Positions 4,158 to 24,358 of a DNA stretch of 24,639 nt are shown here, in pieces. The stretch is from contig CAYLKX010000002.1 in NCBI GenBank assembly GCA_964384735.1, positions 9,381-34,019 on the forward strand. Direction: 5' to 3'. A program made the position numbers and the translations under genes. The notes below the pieces were generated by a model. It was not told the origin of the DNA, did not search any database, and saw only the letters and a list, made by a program, of their open reading frames with translations. The stretch comes from an uncultured Candidatus Saccharibacteria bacterium. Its GTDB lineage: Bacteria > Patescibacteriota > Minisyncoccia > Phycocordibacterales > Zambryskibacteraceae. Each line of letters begins with the position of its first letter. Position 1 is the stretch's first letter.

Positions 4158-4553
4158 ATGTTCATCGGCGAATACACACACACTGTTGATGAGAAGAATC
4201 GCTTCTCCATGCCAGCCAAGTTTAGAAAAGAGCTTGGCCGGAAGGTGGTGGTCACTCGCGGTAAGGATCATTGTCTCTTCCTCTATCCCATCAAGACTTG
4301 GACGGCAATCTCAAAGGAGGTTACTGGCTTAGGGCACGTCAATAGTGATCAGCGTTACGCTCGATTCACCTTTGCCGGCGCCTCCGAAATCGAGATTGAT
4401 TCCATCGGCAGGATCTTGGTGCCCGAATTCTTGCGAGAGTTCGCCAACCTAGACCAAAGCATTGTGATCACCGGCGTGCACGACAGGGTTGAGATCTGGA
4501 ATGAGAAGCGCTGGTTGGATTACAGGAAGAAATTGGAATCCGAATATGCTTAA
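4158..4553 (+). CDS. mraZ: Division/cell-wall cluster transcriptional repressor MraZ
   Basis: MFIGEYTHTVDEKNRFSMPAKFR, DSIGRILVP, GVHDRVEIW; precedes rsmH. Confidence 0.95.
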   Translation: MFIGEYTHTVDEKNRFSMPAKFRKELGRKVVVTRGKDHCLFLYPIKTWTAISKEVTGLGHVNSDQRYARFTFAGASEIEIDSIGRILVPEFLREFANLDQSIVITGVHDRVEIWNEKRWLDYRKKLESEYA

Positions 4554-5478
4554 TCCGGCCAACTCCGCTAAAGCTACGTCGGCTAAACATAAAACTGTTC
4601 TTTTACAAGAAGCGATCGAGCACTTAGGTCTCGAAGAGGGTGGGAACAAAACCTTCGTCGATGCCACTTATGGTGGTGGAGGCCACAGCCAAGAGGTAGC
4701 CAGGCGCTACCCAAAGGTGAAGGTGATCGGCATCGACCAAGATCCAGCGGTAAATCCTAAACCAGAAATCCTAAATCCTAAATTGGAATTCAGGCGGGGG
4801 AACTTTAGGAATATTGACCAAATTCTTGGAGAGATCCGACCAGATGCGATCCTCTTCGACCTTGGTTGGTCCACCGACCAACTAGCCGGCAAGGGGATGA
4901 GCTTCATGCACGACGAGCCTCTCGATATGAGACTCGGCGGGCCCCGCCGAGAAGACGGCGGGGTAAATTTTAGTGCCAAAGATGTGGTAAACAACTGGAG
5001 CGAGGAGGCTCTAGAGCTCATCATCAGAGGCTTCGGCGAGGAGCGTAACTCAAGGCGAATTGCGAGAGCGATTATGGAAGAGCGAAGTTTCGCTCCCATC
5101 AACACCACTCTCGAGTTGGCTCAAATCATTGAGAGCGTGGTGCCAAGGCGTGGACGCATCCACCCAGCTACCAAGACCTTCCAAGCCTTGAGGATCACCG
5201 TTAACGAAGAGCTCACAGCTCTAGAGGAAGGTTTGGCCAAGGGTTGGCAGATCCTCAACTCTGGTGGACGTATGGCGGTGATCTCCTTCCACAGTCTCGA
5301 AGATCGCATTGTAAAAAGATTCTTTAAAGAAAAGGTTGAGGAGAGGAGTGGGGAGTTTATTAATTCACCCCGCCTAGGACCAGGCGGGGCAAGGAAGCCA
5401 ATCGTGCCAAGTGAGGAGGAATTGGAGAGGAACCCACGCTCCCGCAGTGCCAAACTCCGAATTATTAAAAAATTATGA
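4546..5478 (+). CDS. rsmH: 16S rRNA m4C1402 methyltransferase RsmH (MraW)
   Basis: HKTVLL, DATYGGGGHS, DEPLDMR, HPATKTFQALRI, ISFHSLEDRIVK, NPRSRSAKLR; start at the ATG overlapping the mraZ end. Confidence 0.95.
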   Translation: MLNPANSAKATSAKHKTVLLQEAIEHLGLEEGGNKTFVDATYGGGGHSQEVARRYPKVKVIGIDQDPAVNPKPEILNPKLEFRRGNFRNIDQILGEIRPDAILFDLGWSTDQLAGKGMSFMHDEPLDMRLGGPRREDGGVNFSAKDVVNNWSEEALELIIRGFGEERNSRRIARAIMEERSFAPINTTLELAQIIESVVPRRGRIHPATKTFQALRITVNEELTALEEGLAKGWQILNSGGRMAVISFHSLEDRIVKRFFKEKVEERSGEFINSPRLGPGGARKPIVPSEEELERNPRSRSAKLRIIKKL

Positions 5479-19323: not shown

Positions 19324-20304
19324 TTAATCCTTCAATGGGTGGAAGTCTTTGTGCGTCTTCTCCGCATATTTGTCTGAAGCGTGAACGTAACGAGTAGTGG
19401 TATCAAGTGACTCGTGGCCGAGGAGGATCTGGATCGCCGCTGGGTTGGCCCCAGACTCAGCCAAGTAGGTGGCAAAGCCGTGGCGCAAGGAGTGCGCCGA
19501 GGTTGGCACATTGATCCCCAAAATTTCCCTATACTGCTTGATCTTCATTTGTAAGTAATTGGGCGAGATATGCTTCGTCTTATCCTTCATATTGAGCCCT
19601 TGAGTCGCCACAAAGAGGTATGGATACTCATCGGTCCGCTCTTTAAGATAATTATCAATATGCTTCTTGGCTCTATCAGTAAGGTAGATGAAGCGTTGCT
19701 TCTTGCCCTTACCTTGGATGAAGATTCGACCAGACTTGTCGAGTTGAGCCCTTTTAAGATTAATTAATTCCGAAATACGCATACCGGAGGCAAACAAGGT
19801 CTCGAGCATGGCCCGATTCCTCAAAGCGACCAATTTCTCCTTCTCAATCTTGGTTGGAAACTCAATCAACTTCTTAAGCTCTTCCATCTCAGCAACTTGT
19901 TTGTGCTTCTTCTCCATCCTGAGGAGCTTAATCGAGCCTGGCACGACCGGCACCTCTTCATCCATATCAATTAAGTATTGTAAGTATCGTCTAAGTGAGG
20001 TCAGGATTCGGTTGATCGAACCTGACTTAAGATCCTGCATAGTGGCCGAGCCCTTGGCCGTGCGCCTGTCACTTGAGTTGAGGTAAGCCTTAAACTGCTC
20101 AATGGTCCGCTTGGTGGCTGATTTGAATTCCAAATCCATTTCTTTTTTTAAAAAGTGAGCAAAGGTCTCCAAGTCGCGCTCATAGTTGTAGGCCGTCTCG
20201 GGGGAGTAGTTATTGGCCCGAATAAATAAAAGGAAATCATCTAAGTAAGGCAAAGTGTCTGGGGTAGAGGACTCGAGCTTGGGATTGAAGCGTGGTCTAG
20301 GCAT
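19324..20304 (-). CDS. Xer-family tyrosine recombinase (XerC/D-like)
   Basis: N-terminal core-binding domain; RNRAMLETLFASGMRISEL, GKGKKQR, HSLRHGFAT, LGH..LDTTTRY; full R-K-H-R-H-Y set. Confidence 0.92.
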   Translation of the reverse strand: MPRPRFNPKLESSTPDTLPYLDDFLLFIRANNYSPETAYNYERDLETFAHFLKKEMDLEFKSATKRTIEQFKAYLNSSDRRTAKGSATMQDLKSGSINRILTSLRRYLQYLIDMDEEVPVVPGSIKLLRMEKKHKQVAEMEELKKLIEFPTKIEKEKLVALRNRAMLETLFASGMRISELINLKRAQLDKSGRIFIQGKGKKQRFIYLTDRAKKHIDNYLKERTDEYPYLFVATQGLNMKDKTKHISPNYLQMKIKQYREILGINVPTSAHSLRHGFATYLAESGANPAAIQILLGHESLDTTTRYVHASDKYAEKTHKDFHPLKD

Positions 20305-20363: not shown

Positions 20364-20401
20364 ATTATAGGCTATAAGGCCTGGGTCCAGCAATTAACTT
20401 G

Positions 20402-20410
20402 TGTGGATAA
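20402..20410 (-). promoter_or_regulatory. Consensus DnaA box
   Basis: TGTGGATAA is the reverse complement of TTATCCACA. Confidence 0.4.
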
Positions 20411-20692
20411 TTAAATCTGATTAATTCCCCCATTAATTGTTTTGATTTAATTCCCCTCCCTCTTTCCACACTACCTCTCTTCTACCAAAACTTATTGATT
20501 CAAAATTAATTCGGAATATTAATTAGGCACCACTCCCCCACAAAATTTTGGATCTCAGTAGGGGAGTTTTAGAAAAATGATTATTCAATCAAAGATGACC
20601 ACCATTTAAAAGTAAAATGCATCAATAAATATACTGGCACATAAATTGGCGCGAGTAAGAAGAAAAGGAAGTACTTCAACCACTTAGGCATA

Positions 20693-22105
20693 CTAGTGAA
20701 TATAATTCCAAAGAGTTACAACCAAGTCCTTGAGCCCGGCAAGCAAGGTCCAAAGGTAGGCCACGGCGTCTCGACCCTTGTCGGAAGACATCCAAGCGAA
20801 GATCGACCAGCCGAAGAAGTATTTGAGCGCCACAAGAGCCAGCAAGATAAGGATCAACATACCGATGAATCCCCCATTCTTACTCTGGTCATTCAAATCA
20901 GCTTTAAGTAGTTCGATTGCTTTATTAATTCTTTGCATAGATTTTTCTTTACCAATAATTTCTAAAAGGACCAACGGATCCGGTGAGGCCTTGGCACCCG
21001 TGAGAGCAAAGCGTACTGGCCAAAGCACGCTCCCACGGCCCACACCCTCAGCATACTCCATAAGCTTTTGGGCAACATCGGATGTTGAACAATTGCTGAT
21101 TATCTCTAGTGACTTTTCAAGGTGCTTGAGAGTAGCTTCTTTAGGATCGTTCTTCCATACCAAACCCTCCACCGCATACTCTGGCTCACCTGTCATATAA
21201 GGCTCACTCTCAATACTTTTAACCATAAGCATCCTTTGCTCCTCAGCTGGCAAGAGCTTGATGTGCTCCTTATTGACCCAATCGAGCTTCTTTGGGTCGA
21301 AGATGGCCCCACCCTTCTGCACCTTCTTAAGATCGAACTGTTCAATGAGCTCTTGCATAGTAAAGATCTCTTGCTCTGTGCCCGGATTCCAACCCAAGAG
21401 AGCGAGATAATTAACGATAGATTGGGGTAAGTATCCAGCGTTCTTAAAATCCCGAAGAGAGGTAGCGCCATGTCTAGCAGACATCTTCGAACGGTCTGAG
21501 CCAAGAATGAGTGGCAAGTGAGTGTACTGAGGCCTTTTAGCACCAATCGCTTCTTGAAGAAGAATCTGGCGAGGAGTATTGGAAATACCATCATCACCGC
21601 GAATAATATGCGTCACACCCATCTCATGGTCGTCCACCACAACTGTTAGATGGTATAATGGCTCATTGATATTGCGAGCAATTACAAAATCACCCAACTC
21701 GGTTGTATCAAAAGAAATTTCGCCTCTAATACCATCAGTAAAAGCAACGATCTTATTTGGGTTTTTAAATCTCACCACTTCCCTATTCTCTCCCTCAGTC
21801 TCATGAGAGATATAGGCTGTACCGTTATTTAACATTTTCTGAATATACTCCTTATAGACTTCAGTTCTCTCAGATTGCCTGAAGGGACCTCTGTCATAAG
21901 TTATACCGAGCCAAGACAGCGAATCAATAATGTCTTGTTCATACTCCTTCTTAGAACGCTCTTTGTCAGTATCCTCTAATCTAAAGACAATTTCTCCACC
22001 ATGGTGCTTAGCAAAAAGATAATTAAACAAAGCTGTTCTGGCTCGACCAATATGGAAAAAGCCAGTTGGTGAAGGAGGTATTCTAACTACAACTTTTTCT
22101 GACAT
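20693..22105 (-). CDS. gltX: Glutamyl-tRNA synthetase with an in-frame C-terminal membrane / prepilin-like extension
   Basis: PPSPTGFFHIG, RLEDTD, DDHEMGVTHIIRGDD, LALLGWNP, WPVRFALTG; start MSEKVVVR. Confidence 0.93.
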   Translation of the reverse strand: MSEKVVVRIPPSPTGFFHIGRARTALFNYLFAKHHGGEIVFRLEDTDKERSKKEYEQDIIDSLSWLGITYDRGPFRQSERTEVYKEYIQKMLNNGTAYISHETEGENREVVRFKNPNKIVAFTDGIRGEISFDTTELGDFVIARNINEPLYHLTVVVDDHEMGVTHIIRGDDGISNTPRQILLQEAIGAKRPQYTHLPLILGSDRSKMSARHGATSLRDFKNAGYLPQSIVNYLALLGWNPGTEQEIFTMQELIEQFDLKKVQKGGAIFDPKKLDWVNKEHIKLLPAEEQRMLMVKSIESEPYMTGEPEYAVEGLVWKNDPKEATLKHLEKSLEIISNCSTSDVAQKLMEYAEGVGRGSVLWPVRFALTGAKASPDPLVLLEIIGKEKSMQRINKAIELLKADLNDQSKNGGFIGMLILILLALVALKYFFGWSIFAWMSSDKGRDAVAYLWTLLAGLKDLVVTLWNYIH

Positions 22106-22106
22106 A

Positions 22107-23252
22107 TTATTTGGCAACCTCATGCTCGAGGGCGATCTTTAAAATTTCTTCAGCAATATTCTTAGAAGCTTCAGGTTTGAAGAAGTTTTTGTCAGCCTCC
22201 TTCATTTTGCCCCTCAACTCTTCGTCATCAATCAGGCGAGTGATCTCCGCCTGCAAAATGTTTGGCGTAAGATTGTCCTCCTCGATCACCTCGCACCCCC
22301 CTGCCCTAGCGAAGGCGAAGGCATTGGAATGTTGGTCATGACTCACCCGTTCATTAATCGGAATGATAATAGCTGGAATCTGCCAAGATGCAATCTCGAA
22401 GATGGCTGAGCCCGCTCGTGAGACCACGACACTCGCTACCCCTGCCGACATGCGAGTAGCGGAGGCGTTGAGGTAGTCGAAGGGTTTGTAACGATCCTTG
22501 TATTGAGAGTCATAAAGCACTGCATCGGCAGTGGCCTTCACCTCGGCGAAATTTTTGGCCCCAGTTTGGTGAATAATGACGTAATGCTTGACCAACTCCT
22601 TGAGACATCCAAGCAAAGCCTCGTTGATCCTCTTGGCGCCTTGTGAGCCCCCCACTACCAAGATAACCGGCACACCCTCCTCAATCTTAAGGAACTCTCT
22701 AGCGCCATTTAAAATTGGTGTAGCAATTTCGGCTCTAATTGGCTGGCCAGTGTAAGCCGTCTTCTCTGGAGCGAAGTAGCGTCCAGCATCTTTGTAGGAA
22801 AGGGCCACTCTTTGAGCAAACTTCCCCGCCCACAAATTAACCTTGCCAGGCACTGAGTCTGACTCGTGGATCACCACGGGGATCCGCAAGATCCGAGCTG
22901 CGAGCAAGGCGGGGAAGCTCGCGTAACCTCCCTTGCCAAAGACGACATCGGGGTAAAGTTGGTAAACTTGGAAAATAGATTTCAACACTCCCCAACCAGT
23001 TTTGAAAAGGTCGAAAAGGTTTTTAAAAAGATTCAAAATTCCTGGTGAACGACGAATCTTACCAGCACTATTCTTCTTATACACAATACCTCGCTCATAG
23101 AGAGCGCCGGGATCATAGGGGGTAGGCGACATGAAGTAGAGCTCAAGCTCAAGAAGATGCTTCTCCTTAGCCAAGCGGGTAAGCTCCTCTGCTACAGAAA
23201 TAATTGGGTAAAAGTGACCCCCTGTCCCCCCGCCGGTAAATAAGATTCGCAT
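22107..23252 (-). CDS. murG: Lipid II GlcNAc transferase MurG
   Basis: GGGTGGHFYP, GKGGYASFP, GGSQGA, SRAGS, HDQHSNA. Confidence 0.95.
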   Translation of the reverse strand: MRILFTGGGTGGHFYPIISVAEELTRLAKEKHLLELELYFMSPTPYDPGALYERGIVYKKNSAGKIRRSPGILNLFKNLFDLFKTGWGVLKSIFQVYQLYPDVVFGKGGYASFPALLAARILRIPVVIHESDSVPGKVNLWAGKFAQRVALSYKDAGRYFAPEKTAYTGQPIRAEIATPILNGAREFLKIEEGVPVILVVGGSQGAKRINEALLGCLKELVKHYVIIHQTGAKNFAEVKATADAVLYDSQYKDRYKPFDYLNASATRMSAGVASVVVSRAGSAIFEIASWQIPAIIIPINERVSHDQHSNAFAFARAGGCEVIEEDNLTPNILQAEITRLIDDEELRGKMKEADKNFFKPEASKNIAEEILKIALEHEVAK

Positions 23253-23254
23253 AA

Positions 23255-24358
23255 TTAAGTATGTTTCTGAGTTTTAGAAATCGCCAAGACAATCCCCACT
23301 TCAAACAAGCTCGCAAAGAGCGATGTTCCGCCATGCGAGACGAAAGGCAAAGTAATGCCCGACAAAGGCAAGACTCCTAGCATTGCGCCAATATTGACGA
23401 AGGCTTGGGCAATAATCATTATAACAATGCCCACAACTGTCAGTCTAGCAAAGAGATTCGGCACCCTTGAGGCCACCTTGAGCCCTCTAATGGCGAAGAG
23501 GAGGAAGATGCCTATCAGGATCACCGAGCCCAGAAAGCCGAATTCCTCTGCTGCTACGGCAAAAATGGAATCCCCTATTGGTTCTGGAAGGTAAGTAAAC
23601 TTCTGCACACTCTGGCCGAAGCCTCGCCCAAATATTTCACCCGAGCCAATGGCAATGAGCGACTGTTGGATCTGGTAACTCGCCCCTTGCGCATCAGCTG
23701 TAGGGTCGAGGAAGGTTTGGATACGCTTCATCACATATGGCCGAGTGAAAGCGAGAAGGGCTAGACCCAAAGCTCCGCACAAGGCCAGAGCGAGAATATT
23801 TTTCCACGGGCCACCAGCCGCAATGTACATGGCGAAGGAAGCAAAGACAATGATGAGGAAGGTGTCAGTGTCTGGTTGGAGCAAGAGGAGCCCGCCAGCT
23901 ACTCCAAGCAAAATGAGCATGGGCAAAAGTCCGTAGCGAAACTCCTTCACCCTCTCCTTCACACTCGAGAGCCAAGCGGCAAAGTAAATGACGAAAGCAA
24001 ATTTAAGAATCTCCGATGGTTGGAAAGAGACTCCTGCCAACATGATCCAGCGCCTAGCCCCACCGTGTTCGAAGCCGATTGAAGGTACCAAAACCAAAAT
24101 GTTTAAGAAGATGGCGAAGAGGAAGAGGTAGAAGGCCGATGAGCGCCAAATCTTGTAATCGAGGCGCGAGGTGATGATCATGGCGATAGAGCCAAGGAGA
24201 AGACCGAGAACAACTTGGGAGAAGGTGATGCTCGAGTAATTACTCCCCTCTTTAGCCAAGAGCCCAAGTGAAGCGGAGGAGAAGATGAAGAACCCCGCCA
24301 CGATTAAGATGATGGTGAAAATTAGAAATGTTTTATCAATCTTAGAACCTTTAGACAT
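23255..24358 (-). CDS. ftsW: SEDS peptidoglycan glycosyltransferase FtsW
   Basis: GARRWI, SFQPSEILK, LQPD, YQIQQSLIAIGSG, YLPEP..D.IF, LPFVSHGG; directly upstream of murG. Confidence 0.9.
   Translation of the reverse strand: MSKGSKIDKTFLIFTIILIVAGFFIFSSASLGLLAKEGSNYSSITFSQVVLGLLLGSIAMIITSRLDYKIWRSSAFYLFLFAIFLNILVLVPSIGFEHGGARRWIMLAGVSFQPSEILKFAFVIYFAAWLSSVKERVKEFRYGLLPMLILLGVAGGLLLLQPDTDTFLIIVFASFAMYIAAGGPWKNILALALCGALGLALLAFTRPYVMKRIQTFLDPTADAQGASYQIQQSLIAIGSGEIFGRGFGQSVQKFTYLPEPIGDSIFAVAAEEFGFLGSVILIGIFLLFAIRGLKVASRVPNLFARLTVVGIVIMIIAQAFVNIGAMLGVLPLSGITLPFVSHGGTSLFASLFEVGIVLAISKTQKHT

Follow-up and report, generated by a model that had tools for sequence, protein, structure and literature searches.

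Some aminoacyl-tRNA synthetases (aaRSs) of cyanobacteria contain a CAAD domain (Olmedo-Verd 2011; Santamaria-Gomez 2016). These CAAD-bearing enzymes are catalytically active and membrane-anchored, a combination known in no other organisms, and aaRS-CAAD proteins have not been found outside the cyanobacteria (Santamaria-Gomez 2016; PMC4893482). A CAAD-bearing glutamyl-tRNA synthetase (GluRS-CAAD) is present in five species and probably originated by fusion of neighboring gltX and curt1 genes, which are contiguous in related species; deletion of CAAD from Anabaena ValRS, the enzyme tested, had little effect on catalysis (PMC4893482). A different bacterial protein that combines such an enzyme with a membrane component is mycobacterial LysX, a two-domain protein made of MprF and a lysyl-tRNA synthetase, LysRS (PMC2713425). 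Here, we analyze a gltX gene from a wastewater bacterium, located in a stretch of 24,639 nucleotides (the window; GenBank assembly GCA_964384735.1, contig CAYLKX010000002.1, positions 9,381 to 34,019), in which the reading frame for GluRS continues without interruption into a small membrane protein that relatives encode as a separate gene. With this gene, a bacterium unrelated to cyanobacteria appears to have reached an anchored-aaRS architecture with a non-homologous anchor, by capture of a neighboring gene.

An open reading frame that joins gltX to a conserved small gene

The host genome (G000) is a metagenome bin of 42 contigs with a size of about 0.4 Mb and a completeness of 88%. Its gltX frame has no stop codon at the usual GluRS end (...AIELLK) and instead runs on through KADLNDQSKNGG-FIGMLILILLALVALKYFFGW...LWNYIH, adding 70 residues before a TAG. 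The order past the GluRS end is AIELLK-ADLNDQSKNGG-FIGMLILILLALVALKYFF-GWSIFAWMSSDKGR-DAVAYLWTLLAGLKDLVVTLWNYIH, and the codons of the junction contain no in-frame stop where relatives carry the gltX stop, usually an M23 peptidase gene, and the start of the small gene. An original prediction, made from the letters of the window, had placed these features at the correct coordinates, including an extension of ~70 residues and an in-frame TTG at 20896. It had also pointed to KNGG followed by Phe and ~15 hydrophobic residues, with no glutamate at position +5, and the sequence is as described. Upstream of the junction, Pfam recognized PF00749 (tRNA-synt_1c; 5e-86) and PF19269 (Anticodon_2; 8e-14), the latter match ending at residue 403, and the protein scored 432 bits against the bacterial GluRS profile TIGR00464 (gltX_bact), which has a curated cut-off of 290. 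The class I signatures can be read in the translation, with HIGH present as HIGR in PSPTGFFHIGRAR and KMSKS as KMSAR in SKMSARHG, at a site where relatives have KLSKRHG. The GluRS part is 56-68% identical to GluRS proteins of the genus, which terminate 0-8 residues past the ...AIxxL(K) helix in the 10 orthologues aligned. Only one gltX was found in the host genome.

A rival explanation is an artifact, in which an error of sequencing, assembly or binning deleted a stop codon or connected two genes that the cell keeps apart. Such an artifact would fit a source that is a fragmented bin of 42 contigs and the presence of two genes in every relative with a match. However, Logan contigs from 4 wastewater runs belonging to 2 studies span positions 20890-20915, the interval singled out for inspection in the original prediction, with zero indels and zero stops. 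The whole fused gene is present in 4 independent public assemblies (ERZ17987007, ERZ27283013, ERZ3756521 and ERZ27282915) with 0-2 differences in 1413 nucleotides, and a fifth assembly (JGI 3300015606) contains a 534-nucleotide 3' fragment identical to it. The contig names in the matching assemblies are of the NODE (SPAdes-style) and k141 (MEGAHIT-style) types, that is, from two assemblers. Furthermore, a strain-variant unitig (~95% identical) differs by 6 substitutions in 123 nucleotides, 4 of them synonymous and the others producing N411D and D412G in the linker; its frame remains open and TTG 20896 is kept although both adjoining bases have changed. Because the junction is the same in 5 assemblies and in 4 runs from 2 studies, lacks indels, and is open in a diverged strain, the fused gene is real DNA and not an assembly error. 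The artifact explanation is largely refuted, and we give it almost no credence. Thus, where the original prediction had offered recent stop loss or an assembly error as one option, a stop was indeed lost in this lineage and the assembly error can be set aside. Since the copies represent one near-clonal population, they establish the sequence and not its long-term retention.

When the whole protein was searched against 31 related genomes, the match split in two. GluRS matches ended at query residues 407-412, and residues 410-476 matched a separate small open reading frame (ORF) on the same strand, 1.3-2.4 kb downstream, with E-values of 3e-8 to 3e-16. The tail matches a conserved protein family and is therefore not chance sequence. 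The separate small ORF was present in 35 of the 36 other species of the genus, the remaining incomplete genome giving no match, and no continuous match to GluRS and tail was found among the 36. One relative, G047, had an 814-residue "gltX fusion" frame that proved to be an N-masked stretch joining murG and gltX, and it was discarded.

The tail is 41-53% identical to 12 genus orthologues of the small protein and retains 13 of 13 invariant columns; in the alignment, its transmembrane (TM) segment keeps the family-invariant G, F, L, L, L, K, Y and F. TTG 20896 falls in the column of the orthologues' Met1 (MNKLNNERGFIGM... compared to LNDQSKNGGFIGM..., or MNK..RGFIG compared to (L)NDQSKNGGFIG), and the start codon of the small gene was ATG in 12 and GTG in 1 of the 13 relatives in which it was read. 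Against the short-form orthologue of G047, the tail is 51% identical over 63 residues without a gap, and both proteins end in YIH. Two stand-alone orthologues are 52% identical to each other, a level equal to that between the tail and G047. A regression on GluRS identity had put the tail 5-21 points more diverged than expected, but this apparent acceleration arose because the comparison was mostly with a long-form subfamily across an indel, and it was dropped; compared to short-form orthologues, the tail is as conserved as those are to each other.

An exhaustive profile search recovered 317 cluster representatives of the small-protein family. The best 150 of these 317 are free-standing proteins of 54-173 residues with the profile match at the N-terminus, and the orthologues at 13 genus loci, all free-standing too, have 64-108 residues. 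Among GluRS-length proteins in 5.8 billion sequences, the tail was found only in the fused gene's own cluster, and the family profile gave a single match in the host genome. The family consensus reads ..[KR]GFI..IILIIIAL.LLKYFF[ND]WSIFD.., the clusters in the ESM-atlas are all labeled "hypothetical protein", and the few members of known taxon belong most often to the phylum Minisyncoccota. A family name cannot be given, since Pfam and NCBIfam searches with the tail, the 12 genus orthologues and 68 wider members yielded only sub-threshold matches to generic TM helices (holin at E=0.024, MS_channel_1st and PsbL). Foldseek with an AlphaFold2 (AF2) model of the tail returned nothing below E=4.8 in AFDB clusters and zero PDB matches, a search that is uninformative for a helical peptide of 67 residues. 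Collectively, the full-length similarity, the conserved residues and the kept position between gltX/M23 and a 36-residue ORF indicate, at the level of sequence, that the tail is a full-length orthologue of a family of stand-alone small membrane proteins.

Within this family, the G014 protein (L023:3130-3453) has a 22-residue N-terminal insertion with a second, degenerate ..KERGF.. motif (MNKFNKERGFTPT...QRKRGFIG). The insertion resembles a partial tandem copy of the small gene's 5' end.

Locus organization and loss of the intervening gene

The 13 genus loci that were read share the order murG, gltX, a coiled-coil M23 peptidase gene (about 430 codons) and the small membrane-protein gene, and a distant family member has the order ftsW-murG-gltX-M23-small gene-GTPase. 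With its flanks, the genus arrangement is ftsW, murG, gltX, M23, the small gene and then a 36-residue peptide. The M23 gene separates gltX from the small gene in every locus read except those of G010 and of the fused gene. No orthologue of it was found elsewhere in the 88%-complete host genome, where only different M23/coiled-coil proteins occur, on contigs C13, C21 and C34. In this lineage the locus lacks the M23 gene, gltX lacks its stop and the small gene lacks its ATG, which makes this a real, lineage-specific gene fusion of gltX and the small gene. The original prediction had held that two separate genes in all close relatives would refute a fusion; two genes are what the relatives have, but this pattern indicates a young, lineage-specific event rather than the absence of one.

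The M23 gene has also been lost from G010 (L022:1716-1753), where the gltX stop and the ATG were kept. The 36-nucleotide spacer in that genome still holds the last codons of the M23 gene (ttgcatgtttaccgtct; compare ttgcgtatttaccgtct in G013). In the GluRS tree, G000 and G010 are not sisters (with moderate support, 84-85%), so the two M23 losses look independent, and only the event in G000 appears to have taken out the stop and left both frames in register. A candidate promoter that seemed conserved just 5' of the ATG in relatives (TTGCnT..17..TAATAn) was rejected because these bases encode the M23 C-terminus and its stop codon (...PLAYLPSI, then the stop), which explains their conservation, and we claim no promoter. 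A simple promoter scan before the small gene was empty for G047, and the one site that it gave for G010 is badly placed.

The coordinates of the fused gene and its surroundings are collected in Table 1. The ATG at 22105, 1 nucleotide past the murG stop, is a more likely start for gltX than the beginning of the ORF at 22123. The 36-residue ORF begins 1 nucleotide past the stop of the fusion (TAG-T-ATG). This ORF directly follows the small gene, with 56-78% identity (tblastn), at all related loci read whose sequence reaches this point; it is identical in 5 assemblies and has no gene call on the public contigs. It is probably a real, unannotated micro-protein that is paired with the small membrane protein, and the locus also draws attention to a conserved, unannotated pair of genes for tiny membrane proteins within the group's cell-wall cluster.

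Table 1 Features of the fused gltX locus, in window coordinates.
Feature	Position	Strand	Remarks
gltX-tail ORF	22123->20693	minus	Single ORF, 476 residues; 470 residues from ATG 22105
GluRS proper (catalytic and anticodon-binding domains)	20906..22123	minus	Codons 1-406
Junction and linker KADLNDQSKN	20876..20905	minus	Codons 407-416; placed by alignments of GluRS ends and small-protein starts
In-frame TTG, codon 410	20894..20896	minus	Position of the small gene's ancestral start codon
Transmembrane helix FIGMLILILLALVALKYFF, residues 419-437	20813..20869	minus	Family G-F motif precedes the helix
Short loop GWSIFAWMSSDKGR and second, amphipathic Trp-rich helix DAVAYLWTLLAGLKDLVVTLWNYIH ending ...LWNYIH	20696..20812	minus	Predicted from AF2 model and Kyte-Doolittle (KD) hydropathy
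Stop TAG of the fused ORF	20693-20695	minus	
Hydrophobic micro-ORF of 36 residues (MPKWLKYFLFF...; MPKWLKYFLFFLLAPIYVPVYLLMHFTFKWWSSLIE)	20581..20691	minus	Conserved downstream partner
Operon genes upstream of gltX and packed tightly onto it: ftsW (23255-24358), murG (22107-23252)	22107..24358	minus	From the ORF list, with Pfam annotation of these genes on public contigs

Farther downstream of the fusion lies a gene for a Xer-like tyrosine recombinase (326 residues; 19324-20304, minus strand). Relatives have differing genes in its place, on either strand, and the region past the small-gene pair is variable across the genus. At position 20452, between the 36-residue ORF and the xer gene, a second contig in 2 runs matches 20400-20452 and then continues into unrelated sequence (TGGAGCACGTGTTGG...) that is absent from the host genome's assembly. 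In one run, a joint skips 20453-20555. These observations suggest that 20452 is a rearrangement boundary or a strain variant beside the tyrosine-recombinase gene.

Predicted membrane tethering and alternative products

Residues 419-437 have a KD mean over 19 residues of 2.57, whereas the GluRS part nowhere exceeds 1.08. For the last helix, which is amphipathic, the KD maximum is a borderline 1.55 and the hydrophobic moment 1.29. The AF2 model, built from the 67-residue tail and 12 orthologues (pLDDT 70), has helices at 8-27, 31-36 and 39-66 in stand-alone numbering and no strands. In stand-alone members of the family, the short N-terminus ahead of the helix is rich in K/R and the residues behind the helix are mostly D/E, a distribution that suggests an N-in, C-out topology, and with the N-terminus inside, attachment of a cytoplasmic enzyme at that end is topologically allowed.

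With the M23 gene and the gltX stop gone from this species and TTG in place of the ATG of the small gene, gltX reads directly into the small gene. Each ribosome that finishes gltX would then make GluRS followed by a 10-residue linker, a strong TM helix and an amphipathic helix, as every complete translation must carry the tail when there is no stop. GluRS would stay in the cytoplasm, held at the inner face of the membrane by a C-terminal N-in anchor, and the tethered enzyme would charge tRNA-Glu for the whole cell, a task that must fall to it because a second gltX was not found. The single gltX, the presence of the organism in several samples and a diverged strain with the same allele argue that the fused enzyme is functional enough for survival. 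We infer that the gene is translated as one polypeptide that inserts into the membrane in the predicted orientation and is active. On balance, we think that capture of a neighboring gene has left the GluRS of this host tethered to the membrane on its cytoplasmic face; a membrane-tethered synthetase analogous to CAAD-aaRSs, the first option of the original prediction, is, as a prediction, the best fit to the evidence.

Several points count against a tethered GluRS. The known copies come from one near-clonal population and one variant unitig, so the fusion may be of recent origin and have yet to face selection. No RNA runs holding the locus were found. With the genome 88% complete, another gltX, or a small gene that stands alone, could strictly speaking still exist. 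In addition, the N-in topology is predicted from charge distribution only, and with a linker of only ~10 residues, access of tRNA to the anticodon-binding domain at the membrane has to be assumed.

Ribosomes might also start inside the fused gene, either at TTG 20896 or at codon 422, an ATG, and produce a free small protein, so that the tail on GluRS would be a by-product, perhaps poorly inserted or degraded. Consistent with such a dual output, the TTG coincides exactly with Met1 of the orthologues and persists in the strain variant despite both flanking changes, and all family-invariant residues are kept, as expected if the small protein were still needed. The 40 nucleotides 5' of the TTG are plain gltX coding sequence, and the missing Shine-Dalgarno (SD) sequence is no counter-argument. 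In the host genome, SD-like 4-mers (GGAG/GAGG/AGGA/GGGG) occurred upstream of 16% of ORFs of at least 150 residues compared to 20% of random positions in a rough count with naive start calls; most genes seem to start without an SD sequence, and as the motifs are not enriched, their absence before TTG 20896 is uninformative. By contrast, none of the 13 orthologues read starts with TTG, no sigma-70-like promoter was found on the minus strand between 20300 and 22400, and ribosomes translating gltX cannot be halted, so the fusion protein would be made anyway. We therefore regard internal initiation as possible but rather unlikely, and as an addition to the tethered GluRS, not a replacement for it.

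A further alternative is a polyprotein, cut between Gly and Phe by a PilD-like peptidase or another protease to yield soluble GluRS and a mature small protein beginning at Phe419. The tail does have Gly at -1, Phe at +1 and a hydrophobic helix (NGG followed by FIGMLILILLALVAL). The G-F motif is nearly invariant in the family, with K or R before it and the hydrophobic helix after it; a crude motif scan found it in 119 of 150 representatives, and among 68 members the Gly column is conserved to at least 90%. Moreover, the Gly sits 4-16 residues from the N-terminus in most members, a length like that of a leader, and the host genome encodes a Peptidase_A24 homologue. However, position +5 is Leu in the tail and most often I, L or V in the family, where the same type of crude scan found E rarely, and K is frequent at +3. 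The N_methyl profile (PF07963) had zero matches to the tail up to E=1 and none to the tail and the 12 genus orthologues up to E=10, and it was not among the 25 families listed, of 64, for the 68 wider members; yet it finds five canonical type IV pilins in the host. These pilins, all with E at +5 (FT(L/I)(I/V)E after the Gly), form a pilus locus at G000:C4:2930-5764 on the minus strand, with the Peptidase_A24 (PilD-like) gene among them at 4273-4599. The tail belongs to a cell-wall and division context on another contig, next to ftsW, murG, gltX and, in relatives, M23, and not to a pilus locus. Its AF2 model is all-helical and broken after 20 residues, in place of the long alpha-1 helix and beta-sheet head of a pilin, and its length leaves no room for a pilin head domain. 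We know of no prepilin with a 418-residue leader.

Taken together, these data make cleavage of a polyprotein very improbable. The term prepilin-like, which the original prediction had applied to the tail, describes nothing beyond a shared G-F dipeptide, as Glu+5 is missing here and in the wider family and PF07963 has no match, and its proposal that PilD releases GluRS as a giant leader is likewise unsupported, with no N_methyl match and a PilD that sits with canonical pilins on a different contig. Slimmer still is the chance that the small family is a new class of prepilin-peptidase substrates that lack Glu5, cut by the PilD homologue after [KR]-G and before F, with GluRS as the released 418-residue leader. 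If this were true, membrane-peptide processing and the supply of an essential synthetase would be coupled.

We return to the membrane-tethered GluRS as the preferred reading. Should the fused protein prove intact and active, a translation enzyme that is essential and normally soluble can work while tethered to the cytoplasmic membrane of a minimal cell, and the gene would be a natural, datable example of how fusions between aaRSs and membrane anchors begin. Even as no more than a tolerated accident, it illustrates how deletions in reduced genomes create chimeric essential genes. Most likely, the fusion is not an adaptation but a near-neutral accident of genome reduction that the cell tolerates. 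The architecture is genuine and unusual, has a clear evolutionary history, and is confined to one population.

Comparison with described proteins

The closest counterparts of the tail are the stand-alone members of its own family. The tail has the same length as the short form and occupies the same place, after gltX and before the 36-residue ORF. It differs in that only the fused gene carries the family as the C-terminus of another protein, in comparison to the best 150 of the 317 representatives and all genus orthologues. With type IV prepilins, the tail shares a short charged N-terminus, Gly-Phe, a hydrophobic helix and the presence of a PilD-like peptidase in the genome, but it has no Glu+5, N_methyl match, head domain or pilus locus.

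LysX resembles the fused protein in being a bacterial aaRS domain covalently joined to an integral membrane protein. However, LysX is a specialized, additional LysRS paralogue that feeds its lipid-aminoacylating MprF domain, whereas here the sole GluRS is joined to a 67-residue peptide that has no enzymatic domain. An MprF domain is absent, as Pfam finds only the two GluRS domains in the protein and none in the 70-residue tail.

The likeness to GluRS-CAAD is greater. In both cases, a housekeeping class I aaRS carries a helical anchor, here a predicted one, derived from a stand-alone small membrane protein; the CAAD enzymes have no paralogue, and in the host genome only a single gltX was found. 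For GluRS-CAAD, too, the proposed origin of the anchor is fusion with the neighboring downstream gene. The anchors themselves differ, as the tail is not CAAD/CURT1: CAAD had zero Pfam matches in the tail and the 12 genus orthologues and was not among the families listed for the 68 wider members. CAAD consists of two TM helices and a coiled coil, whereas the tail has one confident TM helix and a borderline amphipathic helix. The hosts and distributions differ as well; the host of the fused gene is non-photosynthetic, with a tiny genome (probably Minisyncoccota) and no thylakoids, and the fusion is limited to one near-clonal population, whereas CAAD is spread over many species. Because the anchor is dissimilar to CAAD and the host is unrelated, the fused gltX is not a member of the CAAD family, and we view it as convergent with GluRS-CAAD, reached by the same proposed route.

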